In this document: piece by piece, positions 5,895-54,931 of the stretch | How positions within the stretch are numbered: position 1 is the first letter of the stretch | How the letters are laid out: each line of letters begins with the position of its first letter | DNA from: Candidatus Heimdallarchaeum aukensis | Lineage (GTDB): Archaea > Asgardarchaeota > Heimdallarchaeia > Heimdallarchaeales > Heimdallarchaeaceae | Reading direction: 5' to 3' | Assembly (NCBI GenBank): GCA_021513695.1 | Contig: CP084166.1 | Coordinates: 1,408,001 to 1,472,000, forward strand | Length of the DNA stretch: 64,000 nt | Position numbers and translations under genes: made by a program | The notes under the pieces: model-generated | Told to the model about the DNA's origin: nothing | What the model saw: the letters and a program-made list of their open reading frames with translations, nothing else | Databases searched by the model: none

Positions 5895-6482
5895 CTAATT
5901 GTTTTCTAGTAGAATTGAATTGTTCAAAACTACTTGTTGTACATGCTTCAAACGACGGGCTAGTTCATCAACAGAAGATTTATCTTGAACAATGCCTACA
6001 AGATAATTATCTTTCTCGCAGTTTTCAAGGACAACATAACCAATTCCAGTATCCAATACTTTCACTTCTTCAGTAGAACCTAACAGGTCGTTTATTACAG
6101 GAGGATATTTTCTAAAAATGTTAAGTATCTTTTTTACAACTTCTCTATTCAATGGTCCTCGAACAATTGCTGTTTTTTCTTTACTTTCTATGTGTGGAAC
6201 CAGAGCTGCAGCAGAAAGAGATTTTAGATCATTTGCTATACTGTCAAGTAATGCATCAATTGTTACTTTTATTGCTTTTCTCACTTCTTCTGGTGAAGAT
6301 GTTTGAGACAAGAATTTTTTCAAATATTCTCCTGATTCAATTTTCTTTTTTGAAACTTTAATAGTATTATATGCTATTTCTTCTAACTCTACAAAACTAG
6401 ATTTTTCCGCAGCTTTTCTTTTTCTAGTGGAAATTTTTCCAGCTTGAGATGATTGTTTTTTCGACGGAGACATGCATATCAA
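5895..6482 (-). CDS. Hypothetical protein; paralogue 2 (short form) with a roadblock/LC7-like domain
   Basis: 195 aa. Contains 'VKVLDTGIGYVVLENCEKDNYLVGIVQDKSS', which resembles the roadblock core '[27 protein letters not shown]'. Confidence 0.55.
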   Translation of the reverse strand: MICMSPSKKQSSQAGKISTRKRKAAEKSSFVELEEIAYNTIKVSKKKIESGEYLKKFLSQTSSPEEVRKAIKVTIDALLDSIANDLKSLSAAALVPHIESKEKTAIVRGPLNREVVKKILNIFRKYPPVINDLLGSTEEVKVLDTGIGYVVLENCEKDNYLVGIVQDKSSVDELARRLKHVQQVVLNNSILLENN

Positions 6483-10670: not shown

Positions 10671-11671
10671 TTTTCATTTCTCCAGTTAACGACTACATCT
10701 TCAACCCTATAATGTTGGTCAATAATTGTTTCTTTTAGAGGAGTAGAATATCCTTGGTTGTACATTATGAGTCCTAACCATGCTATCATTAATCCATTAT
10801 CAATCGCTAAACTCGGTTCTAATCCAAAGAATCTAGCACCATGTGATTCTGCCATAACTTTAAGCATTGCTTTCAATCGATTGTTTGAAGCAACGCCACC
10901 ACATACTAATACTTCATTCTTTTTAGTATGTGCTAAAGCTCTTTCAGTAACTTCAACTAGCATTGCAAAAACCGTTTCTTGCAAACTGTAAGAGAGATCC
11001 TCAAGAGTATATTCCTTTTTTTTGAGTAGCTTAGAAATGTGTGTGAGAATTCCAGAAAAAGACACATCCATTCCTTTTATAACATAAGGGATTGGAATAT
11101 ATTTTGTTCCATTTTCTGCTAATAGCTCGATTACACGACCCATTGGAGCTTTTTTATCGCTTAAACCCGCGTTTCTTCCAAAAACATCCAAACAATTTCC
11201 AACAGGAATATCAATAGTTTCTCCAAAAACGCGATATCTGCCTTCGCTAAAAGCAATTATTTGTGTGTTACCTCCTGATACATACAACACTACAGGATCA
11301 TCCATGTTTCCAACTAGTCGTCCTATCTCCACGTGAGCTATAGGATGATTTACGCCAACTAACGGTTTTTTGTATTTTAGCGCTAGTGTCCTTGCAGCAA
11401 CTGCACCAACCCTAAGGCAGGGACCCAACCCTGGACCCTTTGTAAAAGAGATAATATCTATATTGTCCATAGTAAGTTTAGATGTTTTAAGCGCTTCACT
11501 GATTACTTCTGGAATATTTTTGGCATGGAATTCAGAAGCTTCACGAGGGTGAATACCAGAACCTAAGGGGGGTTTGTAGGTTCTTCTAACATTTGCAAGT
11601 ATATTTCCGTTATTATCTATTATTCCTACACCTAATTTGTCAGCAGAACTTTCAATGCCAAGAGATAACAT
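10667..11671 (-). CDS. kae1: tRNA N6-adenosine threonylcarbamoyltransferase Kae1/TsaD
   Basis: N-terminal 'LGIESSADKLGVGII', His-containing metal-binding motifs, 334 aa. A canonical Kae1/TsaD family signature. Confidence 0.9.
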   Translation of the reverse strand: MLSLGIESSADKLGVGIIDNNGNILANVRRTYKPPLGSGIHPREASEFHAKNIPEVISEALKTSKLTMDNIDIISFTKGPGLGPCLRVGAVAARTLALKYKKPLVGVNHPIAHVEIGRLVGNMDDPVVLYVSGGNTQIIAFSEGRYRVFGETIDIPVGNCLDVFGRNAGLSDKKAPMGRVIELLAENGTKYIPIPYVIKGMDVSFSGILTHISKLLKKKEYTLEDLSYSLQETVFAMLVEVTERALAHTKKNEVLVCGGVASNNRLKAMLKVMAESHGARFFGLEPSLAIDNGLMIAWLGLIMYNQGYSTPLKETIIDQHYRVEDVVVNWRNEN

Positions 11672-11759
11672 TATATTAGCTCACGACAACCACATAATCT
11701 TACACTTAAAAAGGTATTTCTGTAAAACTAGGTTAATCTTTTAATATAAGAAAAATATT

Positions 11760-12731
11760 TTGAATTTAATGAATAGATTCTTTTTGATCATTTACCCCTG
11801 GGACTCTATTGATAGGAAAAATGAGAAAAAGAAAAATTTGATTGGTACATTCCTCATGATGTCTTTTTCAGGAATATATTCATTAATACTCTTAAGTATA
11901 TTTTTGAAAAAGATTTTACCTATCATTTCTAAGTCCGAAAATGAACTTCTTGGTAAAAACAGCATAACAGTCAGATTCCTAAATTCTATTTTTTCCAATG
12001 GTTGGCTATTTGCAATTATTTTTGTTATCATAGTAGTTTTATATAGCATAACTTACTTTTTTAATCTCAAAATTGATCAAAATACTATCAAATTTCTTTT
12101 TACAAGAATAAAAGCTATTAAGGATTATTATAATTCTCTATTTCGTGTGTTCCTTATTATTTGTAAAGAGTTAATCGAGGTTATTTTTATTGCTTTATTA
12201 GAGTTTATTATTGCTGAAATAATAACCCTAGGATTAGTGTCAATTATCTCGACAATTTCAATCTCTTTAGCTCTTAATTCAAGTTTATCCATTTACGGTT
12301 TAGCTTTAGCCACAGGAATCTTTATTCATGTCCTAGCTTATCCTATTATGAATGCCTTGTATTTTCTTATTATTATAAAAGAGAAAAAAGAGAAAAAAGT
12401 TTTTAGACATTTAGACCACGAAAAAATAGATTTTGAACTAGAAAAATGGAGAGAGCACACATGGGGTAAGAAAGGTTATTCATATGATTGGAGAGAAGAA
12501 GAATATGCTCCCTTCATCTGTCCAAATTGTAATTCTGTTATTTCAAGTAATTTAGTTATTTGTCCAATTTGTGGAGAAAATGTAGTTGAATTGTTAGAAA
12601 AATTGATGGAAGATGAAGGTAATGAAAAACAAACAGAAAATGACCAAATTAGAACAGAAAGCAATGAAGATGAAAGGAAGATAAATGAAGAAAAGCCAGA
12701 AAATAATGAGAAGAAAACAGAAATTGATTGA
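11760..12731 (+). CDS. Polytopic membrane protein with a C-terminal zinc ribbon and an acidic tail
   Basis: Multiple hydrophobic helices. 'CPNCNSV...CPICG' zinc ribbon near the C-terminus, followed by a Glu/Lys-rich tail. Confidence 0.5.
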   Translation: MNLMNRFFLIIYPWDSIDRKNEKKKNLIGTFLMMSFSGIYSLILLSIFLKKILPIISKSENELLGKNSITVRFLNSIFSNGWLFAIIFVIIVVLYSITYFFNLKIDQNTIKFLFTRIKAIKDYYNSLFRVFLIICKELIEVIFIALLEFIIAEIITLGLVSIISTISISLALNSSLSIYGLALATGIFIHVLAYPIMNALYFLIIIKEKKEKKVFRHLDHEKIDFELEKWREHTWGKKGYSYDWREEEYAPFICPNCNSVISSNLVICPICGENVVELLEKLMEDEGNEKQTENDQIRTESNEDERKINEEKPENNEKKTEID

Positions 12732-12772: not shown

Positions 12773-14017
12773 TTATATTGTTGTTGGAAACTTTGCATAA
12801 GACCTAAACTCTATCCAATCTTCTAAATGTCTATTGATTATATTTTCAATTTCATCCTGGTCTAGTTTTCTTGCAACTGATTCATCTGATGTTAATAGTG
12901 CCATAATATATCTTTCATTTTTGAACTCTAAATCTCGTAATATAAAAATCTCATTTGTTTTTTCTTCGTCGTCTAAAACATATCTTCTTATTCTTAAGAA
13001 AGGTTCTCTCATATTTGCTATCGTTTCTATTGCTTCATAGTATGCATTATGAGATAATTCTTCTAGCTTTTCATTTTTTGAGTACTGGGCAAAACAGATG
13101 TTACTTCTGAAATCATATAAACCAAAAAATTCTGCATTTAAAGTTTCAGCTACTTGTTTTGATGCATTTGCGATATAATCTTGAATCAAACTTATGTTTC
13201 TAAATATGTGCGAGAATGCACCCAATATAGAAGAGCGTATATGAACACTTGTTCTAAAGATTCCTCTTGCAGGATCAAAGGTGGGGACATTAGAATGTAA
13301 ATATTGGACCATTGAGCCAAAGATGGAATTAGCTTTCTCACTTAAAACAAAATCAGGATCAGATTTATGAAAGAATATGGTCCATGGAACATCTAATTTA
13401 AGTTTTTGAGTGACATTAACAATCTGTTTTAAATATTCAAAGCTTTCTTCATATCTATCTTCAGCTTGAACATCTACTACATAGATAATTGTGTCTGTTC
13501 CAATAAAGTACTGTTCAGGATTGTTTAGATAGTCATCTCTATATATTTTCTGTCCTCCTAATTCATGTAGATGAATATCAAGACCAAAAACCTCTAATTT
13601 TCCACGTAAAAGTCCTCTTGTTGGCGTTAGTGCATTCAACTTTTGAAAAAGTAATGAAAAAGCTCCTCTATGTTTCAAGGCTATAGAAAGTGAGGTTTTT
13701 CCTACATTATCAATTCCTGCTAAAATAATTTTAGCTCCAGAGGTTATTTTTTCAGTTTTTTCTACCAATAAAAGTTTGCTTGCAGCTATCCAACTATCTA
13801 TACGCTCTTTTGGAAAAAGTTTTGACAGATCACTATAGTGCTTATTCCACTCTTTTGCTAATTTTTCAATTGTTACCAAACCAAATTTTTCTAGTGATTT
13901 CACCTCACTTTCTCTAATATCTAAGAGAGCTATTACTGGCAAATCAGCTAAATTATCTTCTTTCCTATAATCCTCTTTCAATAGCTTTTCTTTTATATCT
14001 AACACTTTTTTCACCAA
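12773..14017 (-). CDS. Rag/Gtr-like small GTPase with an N-terminal extension and a C-terminal roadblock-type domain
   Basis: G1 is 'AGIDNVGKTS' and the switch II region is 'ELGGQ'. G4 is 'HKSD', the HKxD variant characteristic of RagA/Gtr1 rather than NKxD. The C-terminal ~150 aa contain 'FLRIRRYVLDDEEKTNEIFIL', which resembles the roadblock 'LTFLRIRSKKNEIMV'. Confidence 0.6.
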   Translation of the reverse strand: MVKKVLDIKEKLLKEDYRKEDNLADLPVIALLDIRESEVKSLEKFGLVTIEKLAKEWNKHYSDLSKLFPKERIDSWIAASKLLLVEKTEKITSGAKIILAGIDNVGKTSLSIALKHRGAFSLLFQKLNALTPTRGLLRGKLEVFGLDIHLHELGGQKIYRDDYLNNPEQYFIGTDTIIYVVDVQAEDRYEESFEYLKQIVNVTQKLKLDVPWTIFFHKSDPDFVLSEKANSIFGSMVQYLHSNVPTFDPARGIFRTSVHIRSSILGAFSHIFRNISLIQDYIANASKQVAETLNAEFFGLYDFRSNICFAQYSKNEKLEELSHNAYYEAIETIANMREPFLRIRRYVLDDEEKTNEIFILRDLEFKNERYIMALLTSDESVARKLDQDEIENIINRHLEDWIEFRSYAKFPTTI

Positions 14018-14193: not shown

Positions 14194-16203
14194 ATGTTTT
14201 TTACGGATAAACAGCAACGAATGGAGAAAAGAAAATTGCGTGCACGTAGATTAAACAAAATACTGTTGATTACATTATTATTAATTACCACTTTTTCGGT
14301 AAGCGTATTAGGAAGAGCATATTTTTCTTCAGTTAGTGATTTTGGAAAGACAGACCTAAGTTATTCGAAAAATAATATCGTAGCTTTTGACACCAATGAA
14401 CCCATAATTGACGGGGATTTGGAATCTTATGAAGGAGAATGGGCTAATGCTACAGTTTATAGTAATATAATAGATGGGATAAATTATACTATTACCTTAA
14501 AAGCCAATGAGACTCATCTTTTCTTTGGTATAAGTTATGAGACTAATTTGTTTGTCTCACTCACAGAAACTAACGCAAGCATTCCTCACACTTGGTATGC
14601 AATTGTCTTTGACAGTAACTTTGACAAAGAATTTGGAACAGAACTTGTTCCTGAAGATACTATTTTGTTTAACTATCAAGAAAAAGATGCAACTGACGCT
14701 ACTTTGAATGGTACAGAAACTAATTCATTGGCTTTGGATGAAGATTTAGGAGGAGAAGATAACACAATAGGTGCTATTCAAACAGATCTTTTTGTTGAAG
14801 AATACACTGTAACAATAGAAATCGCTAAAGAATTAAACTCAGGAGATAAGGAAGGGAATGATATAGCCCTAAACCCAAGCGATGCTATTCTATTTGCTTT
14901 AATTCCATTTGCTAACCATACGGATGTATTCAATAATACCGAGGTTCCTTCATTAGAATGGAATACTTTAAGATTAGAACCCACACAAGAATTCTACACA
15001 TATATAGAAAATACCGAAGATCTGTCAGTAGTAACCTACGTTTCAGATTCAGTAAGAACAAAGAGAGTAGAGTTTAATTCAATAGGAAATATGTTAGAAG
15101 CCTATCAATTAAATTCTCAATTAGCAAATAAGGATAATTTTGAGATTACAACTGAAAATCTCAACGATGTTGATCTATTTATTATGGCAGGAAATCAAAA
15201 ATCCCTAACTTCTAGCCAAATATCTGTTTTACGTTCATATTTGACAAATGGAGGAAGTATACTCCTTATTGCAGATGAAGTGAAAAATGAAAGTTCAATT
15301 AATGAATTCTTACGAATGTTCAATATGGAACTATACAATTCAACACTCTACTCAAACAATACTGCCATCAATGAATCTCTAACTTTTGATCAAACAACAC
15401 TTGCACAACTACAATATTTACAAGAAGATAGTGCTTTTACAGAAACAGAATTCAGTAATATCTTTTACACAGGTACAGCAATAAAAAACATTTCTGCCTA
15501 TGGAGAAACCATTTTATTTGGACAAGATGCTGACTTATATCCGATCCTTTCAAAAGAAGGAGAATTCTTCATCAATTTAGGTGAAAAAACAGGATACAAT
15601 AGCACAGAAGATATTGCGATAAACAATGTGACTTTGCAAACTGCTTTAGAACTAAAATATGGAGGAAAAATGATTGTTTCTGCCTCAGCTGACATGTATA
15701 ATTCATCAAATCTTGTATTTGGTTCAAATAAGATGTTACTGTTGAAAGAGATACAATGGTTACTTAACTTCAGATTCAGAATAAGCTATGAAAACTTTAA
15801 CGTCCCTCAGACAAAAGTTAAAGAGGGAAATCCAATAGAAATGAACATTAGCGTTACAGGAGATAACGATACAGTTCTAGCAAATGTTAAAGTACAAGGA
15901 AGAGTGCTTGTTCTTAAATCAGTTGTTTCTTCTGTTGAACTTAATGCTTCAGAAAACAAAATCGATTTCTATGGACAAATTGTTCCTGAAACTAAAGCTT
16001 CATGGGTTGACATTGAGATACTGATGCACAAAAGAGGATATGGATATAACTACACTGAACTAGTAGAAGTTTTAATTGAAAAACAAATAGAAATTCCTAT
16101 AGCGGTAGATTACGTGTCTTTAATTGTTTTTATAGCTTCCATTGGATTAGCTATAATAGGAATGATAACTATAAGAAGACACAAAATTCAAAAAGAAGAA
16201 TAA
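14194..16203 (+). CDS. Large secreted or surface protein with an N-terminal signal anchor and a C-terminal transmembrane anchor
   Basis: 669 aa. N-terminal hydrophobic segment. Many N-x-S/T sequons. C-terminal helix 'VSLIVFIASIGLAIIGMITI' followed by a basic stop-transfer. The internal segment 'LFIMAGNQKSLTSSQISVLRSYLTNGGSILLIADE' is GldG/ABC-auxiliary-like. Confidence 0.5.
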   Translation: MFFTDKQQRMEKRKLRARRLNKILLITLLLITTFSVSVLGRAYFSSVSDFGKTDLSYSKNNIVAFDTNEPIIDGDLESYEGEWANATVYSNIIDGINYTITLKANETHLFFGISYETNLFVSLTETNASIPHTWYAIVFDSNFDKEFGTELVPEDTILFNYQEKDATDATLNGTETNSLALDEDLGGEDNTIGAIQTDLFVEEYTVTIEIAKELNSGDKEGNDIALNPSDAILFALIPFANHTDVFNNTEVPSLEWNTLRLEPTQEFYTYIENTEDLSVVTYVSDSVRTKRVEFNSIGNMLEAYQLNSQLANKDNFEITTENLNDVDLFIMAGNQKSLTSSQISVLRSYLTNGGSILLIADEVKNESSINEFLRMFNMELYNSTLYSNNTAINESLTFDQTTLAQLQYLQEDSAFTETEFSNIFYTGTAIKNISAYGETILFGQDADLYPILSKEGEFFINLGEKTGYNSTEDIAINNVTLQTALELKYGGKMIVSASADMYNSSNLVFGSNKMLLLKEIQWLLNFRFRISYENFNVPQTKVKEGNPIEMNISVTGDNDTVLANVKVQGRVLVLKSVVSSVELNASENKIDFYGQIVPETKASWVDIEILMHKRGYGYNYTELVEVLIEKQIEIPIAVDYVSLIVFIASIGLAIIGMITIRRHKIQKEE

Positions 16204-37889: not shown

Positions 37890-38290
37890 AAAAGCTTTAT
37901 GTGTTTACTATGGGGTAGTGTCTAGTTTTTATACCACCTCCTAGGCAAAAAGGAATTAAGGGGTGGGTGTCCAAGGCTCTGGTGGGGGCGAATGAAGTTA
38001 TAATAAAGCATAAAGAGAGTAAGAAAACCAGAGAGATGATCGGAGCCATAAATAGCTCGAATAGAACAGGTACAGTGGAGAACAGAGTGAAACCAACGAT
38101 AGGTCTTAAGACTGGCATTAAAGCGCTCAACATATGACCGTATACCACCACTAACAACAAGATGATTAAGCCCGAGACGAGATAGATAGGATAGAATAGC
38201 AGGAACCAGCATCAGTGACGACGATACGTGGTTTTGAGGCCCAACAGCGGAACCAATAACGAAAAGTTAGTAAGCACTCGAGGACACTAC
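37890..38290. mobile_element. Degenerate insertion-sequence fragment (3' part of a DDE/rve-type transposase gene)
   Basis: A higher-GC patch encoding a transposase C-terminus in two overlapping frames. It abuts the 5'-truncated surface-protein gene. Confidence 0.5.
37922..38212 (-). pseudogene. DDE (integrase-core, IS481/IS3-like) transposase C-terminal remnant
   Basis: 'VERFNASLKTY...YNFIRPHQSLGHPP' matches the 'ERFNrtLK ... YNxxRPHxxLg' C-terminal signature of rve-type DDE transposases. The catalytic N-terminal portion is missing. Confidence 0.6.
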
Positions 38291-40873
38291 TACCTTTACT
38301 GTTTACTCTAATGGAACATATGTTATTTCAGTCTCTGATCTTACTGATTTTGGTAAATATCAGTTAGTAGTATTATTAACCTTAGATGGTTACGTTGATC
38401 AAAGCTTCACTCTGAACATTTTACTTTTAGAGAGAGAAACAACATTGAGTTCAACTACAGGAACTAGCCTACAGATTTACACAATTGATACCTTGAATCT
38501 ATTTTTAGAATACAAAGACAAAAATACTGATACAGCAATAGAAGCAGATGATAATCAAATTTCTTTTGCTCAAGGAACAGGAAATGAAACTTTAACCCTC
38601 AGTTTTTACTTTGAATCAATAAGTTACAATGGTTACACAGTCACTCTTCATTCTTTCACTTTTGACCCTAATGAAGCTACTGCAGCAGGATATGTATTTG
38701 TTTTCAACATTACACTTTCAAAATTTGGATATTCTAACAATTCAATTATAATCTATTTAAGAGTTGATATCAATCCTTCTGATATTCAGTGCCTAGAAGA
38801 TAGTATACTTATTGATTCTTCACAACAAGCATCTTTTACAATTTTCTATATTGATACAGTTTCTAATACAAACATTACTGGTGCGTTCATTAGCGTGTTA
38901 CAGTTAAATGGTTCTTCTTCTGATATCGATTCACTTTTAGCTTATAGTTCTACACCCTTTTACATTGTCTATATTGATCCTGATAATGTAAATGCTGTAG
39001 ATAAGACCTTTATGTTTAATGTTACACTCTATAAGGCGGGATATGAGAATCAATCTTACATTATTTACCTAACCGTAGTGTATAATCCCACCACAATTAG
39101 TGCAGAAGAAACAGAAAGTACCATTTTTGCGGATCAAGTCGCAGAATTTACACTGTATTATATAAATGATAAAACAGATACATATATAGAAGATGCTTCA
39201 GTAACCATTGAAATTGTCAATGGTTCAATGTATATAGAAGAATATTATGCTACAGGAACAAGTCCCTATATGTTTATATTAACCCTTATGATTAAAATTC
39301 CTCAGATTTAACTTTTGAAATAAGAATCACAATATCAAAAGGAGGATATAAAGAACAATCTATAGTACTTTATTTGCATGTAAAGATTCATCCTACAAGG
39401 ATATTCTCCTCTAGTAGCACTCAAACAATTTATGCAGATGAAACAGCAGATTTCACTGTTTATTACTGGGATACTTACAATGTTTTAATTGAAGAAGCAA
39501 ACCATACAGTAGAACTTACTCTTGGTGATTCAATAGATGTTGAAGGAGTAAGTTTGTTACATAACCAAGTTCTAGATGCTTACATTATCTCTTTTGATTT
39601 TAATGACTTTACAGTAACAAATGAAACATTTATTTTTAACATTACAATGTGGAAACCAGGATTCGAAAATCAATCAATAATACTAACGGTAAAAATCCAT
39701 GATTTCATTAGATATGAATTAAGCATAAACATCGATAGCGATACTATTCAACTTCTAAGTACAGTAACATTTACATTAATTCTAAAAGAAGCTATTATAC
39801 AGTTACTTGCTGATGATAATACAAAATTAGCTTATTCTCCTATTGGAGAAAATGTAACTTTAACTTTATTCCTTCTCGATAATGCTAATAATATCATTGA
39901 AACATCTACATTTAATATTACAATAAGTGATATTCAAAATGGTAATTATATTGGTCAATTCAAATATAGAGTTGAAAATTGGAAAGCTAAAAGCCTTAAA
40001 ATAGAGTGCACATATCTTCCTAAACAATCAAATATTGTTTCAACAACGAACTTCGATCTAACTTTTGAAATAAAGTTTCCATATTTCAATGATCTTTTCT
40101 ATGAATATCTATCTTACATGATTGCAGCAATTTCAATAATTGCCGTAGCAGCAATAACCTTGGCTGTTTATTTTGGAGTAGTTCGTCCCAAAAAACAAAG
40201 GCAACAAGCAAAAAGAAAACAATATTGTGATACTGTGTCAAATATACTTCAAAGCGTCACATCCATAAAGAAAGTTCTTGTTGTTCATAAAGATACTAGC
40301 TCTCCTGTTTATGAATTAGACTTAGGTTCAGATATGAGAGTAAGTTCAGCGCTTGTGACTGGATTTTTGCAAGCTGTATCCACAATGGCAAAAGAGATTA
40401 CAGGAAAAGATAAAGATGTTGTCAAAAAGTTAGATTACGGAGATTTAATTGTTACTTCTGCAGGCACAAAGAACTATATTACTTACATTTTCTCAGATAG
40501 AGAACTTTCAGAAGATATAACAAATGGTCTAAAAGAGTTCGTAAAATACTTTGAGAAAAGATTTTCTCATGTTGCAGAAAACTGGATTGGTTCCTTAGAT
40601 GAATTTAAAAAAGCAGAAAAGGCAATTTTGCGTAATTTAACAGAGCACTTATATATTTGGACATTATATCCTATAACTACTAATCCAACAATGGAAAAAG
40701 AAGTAAAGAAACTAGGTCCAATGAGCCAAAAAATAATTAAATTCGTTAAAGATACAAAAGAAGTAACAATAGGAATAATACTTCAATATTTCAACAGGTG
40801 GCCAAAAGAAGAAACTATTTCACTTGTCTTTGCTTTAGTTGAAGATCATTACCTTCTTACAAAGAGAATATAA
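38272..40873 (+). pseudogene. Large repetitive surface (adhesin-like) protein gene with a C-terminal TM anchor and a cytoplasmic roadblock-like tail; 5'-truncated by the DDE-transposase remnant and internally frameshifted
   Basis: Repeated ~90 aa modules ('FTLYYINDKTDTYIEDASVTIEIVNG...NITLxKxGYENQSxIIYLTV'). The reading frame continues upstream of the ORF-track start, back to a stop at ~38268, without any Met. There is a frame break between 39311 and 39374 with repeat sequence on both sides. TM helix 'YMIAAISIIAVAAITLAVYFGVV' followed by a ~220 aa cytoplasmic domain. Confidence 0.55.
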
Positions 40874-49545: not shown

Positions 49546-49998
49546 ATGCACAAGGGGTTTATAACTAAAGAATTAACCAATGATGAAATAAGTCACAAAA
49601 AAATATTCATTAAAGTAGAAGACAGAATTTTGTTTCCTCATGGTATTTTTTTTATTGACTACCTAGACAATTCCTTTGGAGTTTATTTATCCAATAGAGG
49701 ATTTTTAGAAGGATTAGAATCATGGTTTGAAGAATTTCCTTCTTTAAAGAAGGGAGACATTGTTATTATCGCTAAACATAGCTCGGGCTTTTCTTTGAAC
49801 ACAACCTCACCAGTTGTTCAGTCTCAGATTTCTTTGATAATGGAAATGCAAAGAGTACAAATGTTGACTGAAGAGGATATTCTATGTCCAAACTGTTACT
49901 ACTCCTTAGAAAAAGAAAAACTCCCTGAAGATTCTCCTCACTTATTAAAATTAAAATGTGGGCGTTGTGGATTTATTCTTATAAAAACCAAAATTTAA
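49546..49998 (+). CDS. Hypothetical protein with a C-terminal zinc ribbon; tandem paralogue 1
   Basis: 150 aa. ~100 aa N-terminal domain ('KGDIVIIAKHSSGFSL') and 'CPNC...CGRCG'. Homologous to the 50063..50530 product. Confidence 0.45.
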   Translation: MHKGFITKELTNDEISHKKIFIKVEDRILFPHGIFFIDYLDNSFGVYLSNRGFLEGLESWFEEFPSLKKGDIVIIAKHSSGFSLNTTSPVVQSQISLIMEMQRVQMLTEEDILCPNCYYSLEKEKLPEDSPHLLKLKCGRCGFILIKTKI

Positions 49999-50062: not shown

Positions 50063-50530
50063 ATGCATGTTGGATTTATCATCCGAGAATTAACCGAGGA
50101 AGAGATTAACCATAAGTGCTTATATGTTTTTGAAAAAGACAGAATACTTTTTCCTAATACAGGAGTTTTATTTTTTGTTGAATCCTATGAAGAGACATAT
50201 GGAGTAAGAATAGATCAAGATGGATTTCTTAGAGGATTAGAAACATGGTTTACAAAATATCCTCATAATCCTGGCGATACGATAATCATCGCAAAAACTT
50301 CTGAAAGTTTTTCTTTAAGTAGTTCTTCTGAGCTCATTCAACAAATTATTGGAGAATCATATGAAAAAGTTCGTGTTGATGAAATGGATGAGAAATCAGA
50401 AGCATGTCCAAATTGTCAATATCAACTAGAAATGGCAGCTAAAAAAGAAGAACGAATCATTTTCAAGTGTGCACGTTGTGGATTTACAATGGTTAGAAAA
50501 ATAAAAGATAATGAAAATGAAGAAGATTAA
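50063..50530 (+). CDS. Hypothetical protein with a C-terminal zinc ribbon; tandem paralogue 2
   Basis: 155 aa. Same architecture ('PGDTIIIAKTSESFSL' and 'CPNC...CARCG'). Confidence 0.45.
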   Translation: MHVGFIIRELTEEEINHKCLYVFEKDRILFPNTGVLFFVESYEETYGVRIDQDGFLRGLETWFTKYPHNPGDTIIIAKTSESFSLSSSSELIQQIIGESYEKVRVDEMDEKSEACPNCQYQLEMAAKKEERIIFKCARCGFTMVRKIKDNENEED

Positions 50531-50999: not shown

Positions 51000-51074
51000 T
51001 GGAGCCCCGGAGGGGAATTGAACCCCTGACCTGCGGATTACGAATCCGACGCTTTACCACTTAGCCACCGAGGC
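51000..51074 (-). tRNA. tRNA-Thr (anticodon CGU)
   Basis: The reverse complement folds as a cloverleaf. Acceptor gcctcgg/ccggggc with one G-U pair. Anticodon loop uuCGUaa. T-arm agggg-ttcaatt-cccct. Encoded CCA. Confidence 0.8.
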
Positions 51075-51238: not shown

Positions 51239-51865
51239 ATGATGGAGGAAATGATACACAATATTTGGATTGCTAAGGATACTGGTGAATGTCTATATCA
51301 TAGAAGATTTAATGATGACATCAACATAGATGAGAATTTAATAACCAGCTTTCTCTCTGCAATTGAAATTTTTGCTCAAAATGTCGATTCTGGCTGTGAA
51401 CAGCTTGAAACAAAAAGGTACAAATTCATCTATGCACAAACAGATAACACTGTCACAGTTGCTTGTATTGACAAAAATGATGATGATACCTATATCAAGA
51501 AAGAAGTAGAAGCAATTCAAAATGAGTTTAAATCCCGTTTCAGTAAAATGTTAGAAAATTGGAATGGAAGAGTAGAGTTATTTAGTACAATGGATGAATT
51601 CGTCGATAAAAGATTATCTTCCTTTAATTCCATTCTTGGTTCGTTTAAGAATAAAAAACTGGAGCTGAATGAGATGATTATTAAGCAAAAACCTAAATTA
51701 AAACTCAGTCCTCAGCAAGAGAAAGTCATATCACTGATCAGATATAAAGGGACAGCCACGTTACAGGACATTTGTAAATGGATGAAATTAACTGAGCCAG
51801 ATGCAGAAATAGCTGCAAAGAGCCTTTTACACAATAATATTATACGTGAGGTTACAGGCGCTTAA
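51239..51865 (+). CDS. Cytoplasmic protein with an N-terminal roadblock-like regulatory domain and a C-terminal winged-helix
   Basis: The N-terminal ~130 aa align with the cytoplasmic tail of the 38272..40873 surface protein (for example 'FKSRFSKMLENWNGRVELF' against 'FEKRFSHVAENWIGSLDEF'). C-terminal 'TATLQDICKWMKLTEPDAEIAAKSLLHNNII' is HTH-like. Confidence 0.45.
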   Translation: MMEEMIHNIWIAKDTGECLYHRRFNDDINIDENLITSFLSAIEIFAQNVDSGCEQLETKRYKFIYAQTDNTVTVACIDKNDDDTYIKKEVEAIQNEFKSRFSKMLENWNGRVELFSTMDEFVDKRLSSFNSILGSFKNKKLELNEMIIKQKPKLKLSPQQEKVISLIRYKGTATLQDICKWMKLTEPDAEIAAKSLLHNNIIREVTGA

Positions 51866-52204
51866 CTATTTCTTTTTCTCTTTTATTTCCTTCTTTGGTG
51901 AAGAGTTACTCATCCACTCAGGTTCAGTTTGTTTTCCAAATTCTTTATTGAATTCTTGAACTAAAACTCTAGCTTGTTTAGCGGTATTTACTGTCATTAT
52001 TTGTTTTTTATAAACATCTATTCGTTTATTGCAATAGGGACATTGCTTTGTTTTCTGTCCTGTTTTGCAATAAGAGAATTTTCCACAATATCTGTTTGAA
52101 CAACGTACTATTGTATACACACTTTTCACTGTCCAATGATTGTAACTGCGACTCTTCGATGTCTGCTTCTCACATCTAGACAAATAAAAACTGGTTGTTG
52201 CCAT
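51866..52204 (-). CDS. Basic Cys-rich zinc-ribbon protein (start uncertain)
   Basis: Multiple CxxC pairs. Its 5' 79 nt overlap the yjbQ-like gene, so the true start may be internal or the ORF may be spurious. Confidence 0.3.
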   Translation of the reverse strand: MATTSFYLSRCEKQTSKSRSYNHWTVKSVYTIVRCSNRYCGKFSYCKTGQKTKQCPYCNKRIDVYKKQIMTVNTAKQARVLVQEFNKEFGKQTEPEWMSNSSPKKEIKEKKK

Positions 52205-52539
52205 GTTCCTAACTGTAACCGTGAATTATGAATAGATAAAGATAAACTTGGACCAATTAAACTTGCTCTTAAGTGTGAATGAGCGTTTGAATCAATCATG
52301 TCGTGTTTATATCCCGCACCTTTTGGGACTAGTTTCTCTAATATCTGTTTAAAGTCACTTAGTACTCTTGATTCATACTCTATCGTAGTTAAAGCTCCCG
52401 TAGAACCTATTACATTTGCAGACAAAATACCATTCTTTATTTTTGATTTAGAAACAAGATCTTCAAACATTGAAGTTAGATCTACAATAGTTATTTCTCC
52501 TTTTGTATCAAATTCTAGTATTTCAGAATAGACATTCAT
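52126..52539 (-). CDS. YjbQ/UPF0047 family protein
   Basis: 'SHLRASLIGPSLSLSIHNSRLQLGTWQQPVFICLDVRSRHRRVAV' matches the UPF0047 signature (…GTWQ…). 137 aa. Confidence 0.75.
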   Translation of the reverse strand: MNVYSEILEFDTKGEITIVDLTSMFEDLVSKSKIKNGILSANVIGSTGALTTIEYESRVLSDFKQILEKLVPKGAGYKHDMIDSNAHSHLRASLIGPSLSLSIHNSRLQLGTWQQPVFICLDVRSRHRRVAVTIIGQ

Positions 52540-52579: not shown

Positions 52580-54931
52580 TTGGTTTTAATTAAAAGATTG
52601 ATTTTTTTCAAAAATCGTAAAAATGTTTATTATCTTTCATACGTAAATAAATTGGATAATATGGTAATACAAGAAGAGAGTAAGGACATCATAGAAGACT
52701 CACCTTTTAACCGCCTTGTTCTTGCAGAAATGGAGAGAGAACGACTTTACTCTACATTTGCTTTAGTTGACGAATTTAATGAAATTGCGTCTTCATGGTT
52801 AGAATTTTCAGATTTTTGTGCAAAATCATTATTTAATTTAACAAATTTATCATTTCTTCTCTATGAGCGGTATCTTGATGAATTTAATAGAGATAAGCAA
52901 CAAATAGAGATAAATTTTGAACGTAAAAGCTTCATTATTAAGAGAATAGAAAATCTGCAACAATTCCAAATGGAAGCAGCTATTTTAATGATTCTCTATG
53001 CAGATATTGTTAACACAGGCATTTTTGAGTCTAAACCTGCAGAAAATTTTTGTTATTTAAACATTGAAGGATATAAGGTTCTTGAGAAAATCTCTTCTAC
53101 ATATTTCGATTCTACTCATCCCAGGGCCTCATCAATTGAAGATATTATGGTAAAGTTATTTACAATAAGTCAAAAAGTCCAAATTGTGAAGATACTAAAT
53201 GATTCGCCAATTAAAAAAGCAAAAGAACCATCTTTTATTCAAGAACAACTTGAGTTGGAAAGATTATTAGCAAGTTTTGAGTTTGATTTTATTGCTAAGT
53301 TAATAGAAGAACTCGGAAAAAGATGGTGGTGGTATGACCCAATTGCAATACATTTTAGCTATGAAAGAGCAATGAAACACTTAGAAAAATCTCTTTCCCT
53401 TTTAGAACATAGTGAGGAAAATGTTCTACAAATTAAAGAAGAAATTAAAAATAAGATCTCAACAATAGATAAAATTTGGAGAAATAAAGCACTAATTGAT
53501 CACTTTTATAGAATCACATTAGAAGCAGCTAAAAAAGACAACTTTGTTGCAAGCATCGAATACCTAAACTTAATTTTAGGATTAATCGATGAAATCATTG
53601 AATATTTTCAAAACAATAATGAACATTTAGAAAGCGAAGAACAATTTTATGAAGAAATAGAAGAACGTAAAAACGATTTAAAAGTTTTTCATATTGTTGT
53701 CAGACTAGCTCTTTCTGTAGCTGAAATCATAAACAAACAAACCTCAATAGATAAAGCATTGTTAGAAAAAAAACTTACAGAAATAGAAAAAATATGCAAA
53801 GATTCTTCATTGTTTTCCAATATAAATTACTTCTCTGAAATTATTTATGTTTATCAAGGCTTTGTTCAAACAGCTAGAATTGGTATACTGAAGAAACAAA
53901 AAACAGAGAAAATCTTGAATAATGCAATAGCACAATTTGAATACTATATAGTCAAACTTGAGAATAGTTTAACAAAAATTGCTAATGATTTTTATAAGAA
54001 AGTCCATAAAGGGACGCTAAAAAGTACTGATTTTAAAAATTACTTAAAAAAGATTGAAGAGTTAAAGTACATCAGTTTCTTTTTACCTAACTTAGAACAA
54101 AAACTCAATCTTACACGAGAAATAGAGTCAATGGAATGTTATATTAAATCAATAGCTGCATTAAAACAGTCACAATCCCAAGAGTTGTCTGAAATTGAAA
54201 AACTCATCTATTATTCGAAAGCACACTATTTCTCAAATAAAGCTTTAGATTTGTCTCAAAGTAAGGAAAAAGCCATAATTCCTGACAATTGGCTTGAAGA
54301 GCAGTTCCTTAAAACTTTCACTGAAGGGAGAGAAGTCGAGTTAAAACTTTTTGAATTATCACGTCAATTTCTTTTTCTAAATAAAGTAATAGATGAAATT
54401 GCTTATTGCTTTGACATTTCAGAAAAAAAGAAAGAAAAAATTGAAAATTATGAGACAGTTCTTCAATTTCACTTTAGAAAATTTGAACTCTTTGAAATCA
54501 TTAACAAACAGATAGAAGAAAATTGTTTAGAATCCCTGAAATACAGAGAAATATCAAATGATATTGTAATTGTAGATAAAAACGTCAATTGGCAAATTAT
54601 TGAAGCTAAAAAAATATTGGCATCTTCAGCAGACAAATTAATCAAAGCACTTAAAAAATGCGCCCTTGGTTATGCAGCAGATAGAAGTAAAGACAACTAT
54701 AAAGCAGCTGTTTTATTTAATGAAGGTTATAAGCTGGTTCAGGAAGCATGTAATATTTTAGACCCACTAACTACATATGACAAACAATTTGCTGATTTGG
54801 CAAAAACAACTTACGAATTCAATTTGTTTCTAAAGGAACTTGAACGTTTGGAACTTGAGAAGAAAAAAATAAAAGAATTTCCTCTAGAAAAAGTGTTGTC
54901 TCTAGTTAAGAAAATAATTTTCTTTTCGTAA
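52580..54931 (+). CDS. Large (783 aa) all-alpha hypothetical protein
   Basis: Long helical, Lys/Glu/Leu-rich ORF with no recognisable catalytic motif. The start is possibly at an internal Met. Confidence 0.45.
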   Translation: MVLIKRLIFFKNRKNVYYLSYVNKLDNMVIQEESKDIIEDSPFNRLVLAEMERERLYSTFALVDEFNEIASSWLEFSDFCAKSLFNLTNLSFLLYERYLDEFNRDKQQIEINFERKSFIIKRIENLQQFQMEAAILMILYADIVNTGIFESKPAENFCYLNIEGYKVLEKISSTYFDSTHPRASSIEDIMVKLFTISQKVQIVKILNDSPIKKAKEPSFIQEQLELERLLASFEFDFIAKLIEELGKRWWWYDPIAIHFSYERAMKHLEKSLSLLEHSEENVLQIKEEIKNKISTIDKIWRNKALIDHFYRITLEAAKKDNFVASIEYLNLILGLIDEIIEYFQNNNEHLESEEQFYEEIEERKNDLKVFHIVVRLALSVAEIINKQTSIDKALLEKKLTEIEKICKDSSLFSNINYFSEIIYVYQGFVQTARIGILKKQKTEKILNNAIAQFEYYIVKLENSLTKIANDFYKKVHKGTLKSTDFKNYLKKIEELKYISFFLPNLEQKLNLTREIESMECYIKSIAALKQSQSQELSEIEKLIYYSKAHYFSNKALDLSQSKEKAIIPDNWLEEQFLKTFTEGREVELKLFELSRQFLFLNKVIDEIAYCFDISEKKKEKIENYETVLQFHFRKFELFEIINKQIEENCLESLKYREISNDIVIVDKNVNWQIIEAKKILASSADKLIKALKKCALGYAADRSKDNYKAAVLFNEGYKLVQEACNILDPLTTYDKQFADLAKTTYEFNLFLKELERLELEKKKIKEFPLEKVLSLVKKIIFFS

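Follow-up and report, generated by a model that had tools for sequence, protein, structure and literature searches.

A predicted longin and winged-helix protein of Candidatus Heimdallarchaeum aukensis and its relationship to the tail of a decayed surface protein

We analyzed a 64,000-nucleotide stretch of the genome of Candidatus Heimdallarchaeum aukensis (contig CP084166.1, positions 1,408,001 to 1,472,000; G+C content, 31%), referred to here as the window, and focused on the gene at 51239..51865, which encodes a protein of ~23 kDa. Judging from structure models, the product is most likely a cytosolic protein of two domains, in which a short conserved linker joins a eukaryote-like longin domain at the N terminus to a winged helix at the C terminus. 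It is homologous to the predicted cytoplasmic tail of a giant type I surface protein (here called the adhesin), a decayed copy of which lies in the same window. The gene belongs to an Asgard-wide expansion of eukaryote-like longin domains and represents the soluble branch of an old longin-linker-winged-helix cassette. As for its function, we lean toward a role, by analogy with characterized longins, as a platform or adaptor that would bind small GTPases or other longins.

Homology between the soluble protein and the surface-protein tail

An earlier note on this DNA, made from the sequence alone, had proposed that the soluble protein resembles the adhesin tail, and this similarity proved to be real. 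In BLASTP, the product of 51239..51865 aligned with the tail encoded by the open reading frame (ORF) 39374..40873 (ORF residues 271 to 499) with an E value of 2e-9 and 23% identity over 182 amino acids. With phmmer, run in both directions, each protein found the other as its sole match among the 169 stop-to-stop ORFs of the window (E values of 1e-9 and 4.5e-9; next match, E > 0.1). Profile methods supported the relationship as well, since an hhalign comparison of 35 soluble orthologs with 11 tail homologs gave a probability of 97.9% and an E value of 3.1e-13 over 174 columns.

The homology had been thought to cover only residues ~5 to 130, but it extends further: in BLASTP, the profile search, and hhalign, the alignment passes beyond the linker and enters the winged helix. 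Indeed, an exhaustive profile search matched profile positions 2 to 203 of 206 in the tail of a 1,760-amino-acid adhesin ortholog (P0068). Because the alignment runs into the winged helix and the model of the tail carries a three-helix-plus-wing domain of its own (tail residues 179 to 226), we conclude that the whole soluble protein corresponds to the whole tail cassette. The two motifs that had been noticed earlier are signatures of the family and are located on helix α1 (D..L[IV][ST][GS]FL.A[IV]..F) and at the α2-α3 junction (W.G....F). A search of the window with two hidden Markov models (HMMs) for a third longin copy returned only a marginal partial match at 5895..6482 (E value, 1.3e-3), which was not counted.

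Predicted domain architecture and fold

Separate AlphaFold2 (AF2) models of the soluble protein and of the tail (predicted local distance difference test score [pLDDT], 82.5, and predicted template modeling score [pTM], 0.77, for the tail) contain the same two domains. Neither outcome that the earlier note had named as refuting the homology, a lack of profile support or unrelated predicted folds, was thus obtained. In both proteins, the predicted topology is β-β-α-β-β-β-α-α, with a sheet of five strands flanked by one helix on one side and two on the other, as defines a longin domain, and with a short β3 in the soluble model; the coordinates are given in Table 1. Structural comparison placed the domain closer to solved longin domains than to other folds, and the tail model matched sedlin (11.6), AP-5 sigma (11.5), Sec22b (10.9), and MglB (10.9). 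The better roadblock score of the tail model is due to its extra juxtamembrane helix. In the soluble model, the C-terminal domain is a three-helix bundle followed by a β wing, in agreement with the winged helix, or helix-turn-helix (HTH), assigned to this end of the protein in the earlier note.

At the level of sequence profiles, the window protein itself stayed under the Pfam thresholds (Sybindin, 0.039; Fuz_longin_1, 0.15), while its orthologs repeatedly matched Longin, Clat_adaptor_s, and Fuz_longin_1, with Longin (PF13774) reached at 9e-5. Within the same HMM family, members at a greater distance exceeded the Pfam cut-offs for Fuz_longin_1 (P0114, 34.9 bits; P0095, 30.1 bits) and for Clat_adaptor_s (P0138). 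A sequence search of the PDB gave nothing significant, and neither Pfam nor NCBIfam holds a family that covers the longin-winged-helix cassette. Weak matches of the tail to DUF7198 and Robl_LC7 were discarded because ten other tail proteins did not show them.

The soluble protein contains no hydrophobic segment and begins four residues before β1; its longin domain is therefore not preceded by a transmembrane (TM) helix within ~50 residues, whereas that of the adhesin remnant is. Its start in NCBI and in most orthologs corresponds to Met5 at 51251, which gives 204 amino acids, and the product counted from Met5 has exactly the sequence of UJG42045.1 (hypothetical protein K9W45_06165). The present analysis assigns two defined domains to this hypothetical protein and marks the neighboring adhesin as a pseudogene.

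Table 1. Coordinates of the soluble gene, the adhesin remnant, and nearby or related features (window positions unless a locus is named)
Feature	Coordinates	Strand	Details
CDS, soluble longin and winged-helix protein (predicted)	51239..51865	+	208 amino acids from first ATG
Longin domain (predicted)	51251..51628	+	residues 5-130; β1 6-12, β2 18-24, α1 32-51, short β3 56-57, β4 61-67, β5 71-78, α2 84-106, α3 113-130
Linker	51629..51700	+	residues 131-154; invariant L-E-L strand (KLELN); PL..NP at the equivalent place in tails
Winged helix (predicted)	51701..51856	+	residues 155-206; helices 158-170, 175-182, 186-198; strand 202-204
Giant type I surface-protein remnant	38274..40873	+	two frames, 38274..39311 and 39296..40873
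Single TM helix YLSYMIAAISIIAVAAITLAVYFGVV, then basic stretch RPKKQRQQAKRKQ	40106..40183	+	
Paralogous cassette as predicted cytoplasmic tail	40184..40873	+	juxtamembrane helix, tail residues 2-27
Longin domain of tail (predicted)	40265..40651	+	tail residues 28-156
Winged helix of tail (predicted)	40712..40864	+	tail residues 177-227
rve_3 integrase-core fragment	37922..38212	-	96 amino acids; E value 6.7e-5, below Pfam cut-off
tRNA-Thr(CGU)	51000..51074	-	upstream of soluble gene, divergent
DUF1922 gene	51866..52204		downstream of soluble gene, convergent
Rag-like GTPase (Gtr1_RagA + Arf)	12773..14017	-	414 amino acids
IFT52-GIFT-like domain protein	14194..16203	+	669 amino acids; divergent from Rag-like gene
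Zinc-ribbon tandem paralogs	49546..49998 and 50063..50530	+	150 and 155 amino acids; C-terminal CxxC...CxxC
YjbQ/UPF0047 gene	52126..52539	-	
Protein with no Pfam match	52580..54931	+	783 amino acids
Example of a tail protein and Arf-like GTPase locus (from L028-L081)	L033 5340..8693 and 11484..12011		

Family, conservation, and distribution

We found 63 close relatives of the soluble protein (55 to 96% identity; 200 to 220 amino acids), all from Heimdallarchaeaceae or from metagenome-assembled genomes (MAGs) of Heimdallarchaeota, and none of the 63 carried a Pfam domain. An alignment of 35 soluble orthologs contained 60 invariant columns, concentrated on β2, α1, and the W.G motif. The invariant residues include T-G-E-C in the β1-β2 loop, ENLITSFLSAI.IFA.N.D on α1, three cysteines, and W108/G110. 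The cysteines (C18, C53, and C76) were invariant in all 35 aligned sequences, and the first of them, in a G.C motif of the β1-β2 loop, is also frequent in the wider family.

The wider family emerged when 1.84 billion cluster representatives were searched exhaustively with an HMM: 1,501 proteins were retrieved at E values of ≤1e-3, 231 of them at ≤1e-10. Word-indexed searches retrieved a single close fragment with the tail alone and mostly known orthologs with a 41-sequence longin alignment. The named sources of the family are all Asgard archaea (Heimdallarchaeaceae, Kariarchaeaceae, Hodarchaeota, Promethearchaeota/Lokiarchaeota, Helarchaeota, Hermodarchaeota, Thorarchaeota, and Odinarchaeota), with the exception of one bin. 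This sole non-Asgard label in the tail family, a contig (DATKTP010000001.1) binned as Candidatus Deferrimicrobium with an E value of 9e-6, is probably a case of mis-binning or transfer.

Among 149 family members whose architectures were inspected, ~45 had a predicted TM helix no more than 80 residues ahead of the longin domain. Typical TM members start with a signal or TM segment at the N terminus, continue with an ectodomain that ranges from a few hundred to ~2,600 amino acids, and end in a TM helix and the tail; their total lengths are 255 to 2,900 amino acids. Approximately 25 of the 149 were soluble longin-winged-helix proteins of ~200 amino acids, and many of the remaining members have an N-terminal longin domain followed by another domain. 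Of 62 mid-size members scanned with Pfam, ~8 to 10 turned out to be fused to a GTPase domain of the Arf, Ras, or Roc type; other fusion partners are a prenyltransferase toroid, V4R, and PCI-, DDRGK-, or UFL1-type winged helices.

In a neighbor-joining tree of full cassettes, the TM-tail clade was set apart from the soluble clades, which argues that the two forms are old paralogous branches rather than the result of a recent duplication. We also considered that the soluble gene might be a detached fragment of a tail gene, a possibility that we rejected in view of its more than 60 full-length orthologs and of the separate clade that it forms.

Decay of the neighboring surface protein

The earlier note had treated 38272..40873 as one intact surface-protein gene, which it is not. 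The remnant occupies two frames, lacks a start codon and a signal peptide, and matches only residues ~1105 to 1760 of the intact P0068, so that ~1,100 N-terminal codons are missing. The frame change stems from a 1-nucleotide deletion near 39270 relative to the ortholog in Candidatus Heimdallarchaeum endolithica PR6, a genome with ~86.5% DNA identity to the window, in which ~4.5 kb missing from the window is present at the truncation site. An integrase-core fragment (rve_3; Table 1) lies exactly at the truncation point. The basic stretch that follows the single TM helix would place the tail in the cytoplasm according to the positive-inside rule.

Lesions were also found in two close relatives. 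In the PR6 copy (L007, 3248..8687), an in-frame TGA replaces the invariant Trp of E-N-W-I-G, and a frame break is located near the 5' end; upstream of this copy lies a different, intact DDE_Tnp_1 transposase (L007, 1974..2918). In the MAG GCA_054383115 (L086, 4592..10390), the copy is split into pieces of 374, 1,292, and 129 amino acids that overlap within the longin domain. Besides, the 90% cluster of the tail holds only fragments of 60 to 163 amino acids. Intact orthologs occur in some Heimdall genomes, namely the 1,760-amino-acid P0068 and ORFs of 1,676 to 1,879 amino acids at L008, L013, and L014. The differing lesions in three close Heimdallarchaeum genomes fit a surface protein that is dispensable or counter-selected, unless they are assembly errors, while the soluble gene is intact in all three.

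These results bear on the signaling pair that had been suggested for the two proteins, in which the soluble protein would bind the adhesin tail through a homotypic longin contact, or share a ligand with it, and relay a surface signal, possibly to DNA. The two are true paralogs that share the same cassette, longin domains commonly heterodimerize with paralogs, as in Mon1-Ccz1, NPRL2-NPRL3, and TRAPPC1-C4 (PMC3747258), and the genes are 10 kb apart in the window and 5 kb apart at L003. However, this proximity is limited to close relatives: no tail-type gene was found within 6 to 7 kb of the soluble gene at L002, L004 to L006, L082, or L083. The two sequences, at 23% identity, fall into separate old clades, and the adhesin, broken by 5' deletion and frameshift in the window, is independently broken in PR6 and GCA_054383115. 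The evidence thus argues against a working pair of the soluble protein and the neighboring adhesin in this genome, and we consider a dedicated pair quite improbable; we infer that the soluble protein is independent of this particular adhesin. A homotypic contact as such is reasonable in principle, since homo- or heterodimerization and the docking of small GTPases are typical of the longin fold (PMC3747258). A 2,153-amino-acid surface protein encoded beside a distant soluble homolog at L082 lends the pairing no support, as it is devoid of a longin tail.

Proposed function

With moderate confidence, we favor the interpretation that the soluble protein is a longin platform or adaptor. This proposal follows from the location of the strongest family-wide motif on α1 and from the fusion of members of the same family to Arf- or Ras-like GTPases. 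In the systems whose structures have been solved, longin and roadblock domains dimerize through β3 and α1, and a small GTPase or peptide is bound at the α1 face, as exemplified by MglB-MglA, TRAPPC1/C4-Rab1, Mon1-Ccz1-Rab7, SRX-SRβ, and NPRL2/3-RagA (PMC3747258), and similar dimers are formed by Asgard longins and roadblocks (PMC10933270; PDB 8yqg, listed as a dimeric Loki longin). By this analogy, the longin domain of the soluble protein would be a protein-protein platform that pairs with another longin or roadblock domain and/or docks a small GTPase on its α1 face, and the winged helix would provide a second surface, which may bind protein or, less likely, nucleic acid. It is possible that the soluble protein forms a heterodimer with longins of the tail type that belong to other surface proteins of this genome.

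Several points weigh against this interpretation. The AF2 model of the soluble protein is of only medium confidence (pLDDT, 75.6; pTM, 0.57). The gene, placed between a divergent tRNA-Thr(CGU) gene and a convergent DUF1922 gene, is accordingly monocistronic and does not form an operon with a conserved GTPase gene; the Rag-like GTPase gene of the window is 37 kb away. Moreover, the soluble winged helix is basic overall (pI, ~9.3) and has weak matches to MarR, HTH_9, and Lrp-like domains, and for these reasons binding to DNA or RNA is conceivable.

The alternative that takes this last point furthest is a one-component transcription factor, in which the longin domain, an α/β fold similar to PAS and GAF, senses a ligand or partner and the winged helix binds DNA. 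The soluble winged helix is indeed mildly basic, with a mean net charge of +2.9, and that of the tails is neutral overall. Helix 3, the usual DNA-reading helix, is net acidic (mean, -1.9 in the soluble proteins and -1.7 in the tails), with a conserved D/E at its start, and the HTH matches (MarR, HTH_9, and MreA) all fall below curated cut-offs, so that the protein was not assigned to any of these regulator families. Dozens of type I proteins keep the same winged helix permanently anchored at the membrane, behind a TM helix, related members carry PCI, DDRGK, and UFL1-type winged helices, which are protein binding, and no conserved divergent target gene was found at the loci compared. Because of the acidic helix 3, the membrane tethering, and the protein-binding winged helices of the relatives, we rank a classical DNA-binding role second and regard it as unlikely. 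The earlier note had set a receptor tail against a transcription factor, each with the shared module; the module is homologous and the soluble form does end in a winged helix, but the contrast itself is weakened because the membrane-tethered tails bear the same winged helix.

A further alternative is suggested by the domain order of eukaryotic NPRL2 and NPRL3, in which an N-terminal longin domain is followed by C-terminal winged-HTH repeats (PMC3747258): the soluble protein might be a minimal NPRL2/NPRL3-like or FLCN-like subunit of a GTPase-activating protein (GAP) that stimulates GTP hydrolysis by a Rag-like GTPase. GAP-type longins have been proposed in Asgard archaea (PMC12290439), and a Gtr1_RagA/Arf GTPase of 407 to 414 amino acids, together with the IFT52-GIFT-like gene, is encoded 1 to 5 kb from the ortholog at L002 and L004 to L006. 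In the window, the two genes of this GTPase pair are divergent from each other (Table 1). Linkage as an operon was rejected on account of the variable spacing and orientation and of the 37 kb that separates the genes in the window, a distance that also speaks against membership of the NPRL2/NPRL3 family. GAP-type longins of the FLCN, SMCR8, and NPRL2 class have a GP motif in the β1-β2 loop and a conserved arginine finger (PMC12290439), whereas the loop contains the invariant T-G-E-C in the soluble orthologs and G-L-P in the tails, and the sequence alignment, on which this comparison is based, has no invariant Arg after α1. Besides, the protein gave no match to the NPR2/NPR3 profiles and was not assigned to the NPRL2/NPRL3 (GATOR1) family, which is marked by such a match and by TINI/INT/CTD regions after the longin domain. 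We judge this explanation the least probable of those considered here.

In addition to the platform or adaptor role of the soluble protein, the family as a whole may be viewed as an Asgard transmembrane coupling device, in which the tails of surface proteins of 255 to 2,900 amino acids would recruit or regulate a small GTPase or longin partner and the soluble paralog would act as a cytosolic relay or competitor. We regard this idea as doubtful, more so than a role in DNA binding; the lead toward it comes from ~36 loci in the Loki, Hod, Hermod, and Thor lineages that keep an Arf-like GTPase gene 1.5 to 3 kb downstream of a gene for a tail-bearing protein. At these loci, an RsmB/F methyltransferase gene comes after the gene for a longin-tailed type I protein of 1,100 to 1,350 amino acids, and the 175-amino-acid Arf-like GTPase is encoded on the opposite strand, overlapping a gene for 186 amino acids (Table 1). 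If true, such a device would be a prokaryotic forerunner of receptor-to-GTPase signaling or of cargo-receptor/adaptor sorting.

Relationship to known longin systems

Longin proteins of Asgard archaea, including those fused to GTPases, are already well known (PMC4917890; bioRxiv 10.1101/2020.10.19.343400; PMC10933270; PMC10936438); for example, Lokiarchaeum has 41 predicted longin-domain eukaryotic signature proteins, some of them fused to Arf-like GTPases (PMC4917890; PMC10933270). The soluble protein resembles these signature proteins, including the Loki Roadblock-Longin of PDB 8yqg, in its fold, its superfamily, its phylum-level distribution, and its HMM-family relatives with fused Arf/Ras-like GTPases, but the soluble branch adds a C-terminal winged helix and its sister branch is anchored behind the TM helix of giant surface proteins. 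In Pfam, NCBIfam, and the literature searched, the coverage of which was incomplete, we found no description of the soluble longin-winged-helix ortholog group or of type I surface proteins with a longin-winged-helix tail.

Identity to eukaryotic longins (Sec22b, VAMP7, Ykt6, sedlin/TRAPPC2, and AP sigma) was only 8 to 16%. Unlike these proteins, the soluble protein has no SNARE motif, no C-terminal anchor, and no recognizable TRAPP or AP gene set, and has a winged helix instead. It likewise differs from the longin SNAREs (Sec22, Ykt6, and VAMP7) in that the longin domain is followed by a linker and winged helix, without a TM helix or lipidation box. Among known systems, NPRL2 and NPRL3 of GATOR1 share the order of a longin domain followed by a winged HTH (PMC3747258), and the MglB/Roadblock-LC7 GTPase platforms of bacteria and archaea are counted among the closest. 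In the signal recognition particle receptor, which pairs the SRX longin of SRα with the Arf-like GTPase SRβ, the membrane anchor is on the GTPase, whereas in the Asgard tail branch it is on the longin.

Longins are eukaryote-like trafficking and signaling parts common to Asgard archaea and eukaryotes, which raises the question of how they are used in cells that lack an endomembrane system. Here, one large, sequence-coherent longin family occurs in three forms, namely as a soluble longin-winged-helix protein conserved across Heimdallarchaeaceae, as a membrane-anchored module under giant surface proteins, and as fusions to Arf/Ras-like GTPases. The family therefore provides concrete candidates for investigating a possible connection, through Asgard longins, between the cell surface and small-GTPase switches.

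Gene neighborhood

Just upstream of the soluble gene are two tandem paralogs with a C-terminal zinc ribbon (Table 1), one copy of which also adjoins at L004 and L086. A YjbQ/UPF0047 gene is a neighbor of the soluble gene in the window and, in variable orientation, at L003 to L006, L082, and L083; it is kept even beside homologs of 28 to 32% identity (L082 and L083) and is absent at L002 and L085. A 750-amino-acid neighbor at L085 was compared with the 783-amino-acid protein of the window and rejected as nonhomologous. Homologs of the latter are encoded near the soluble gene at L004 to L006 and at the distant L082 (E value, 3e-46), and it is thus a candidate functional neighbor of the soluble longin-winged-helix gene.
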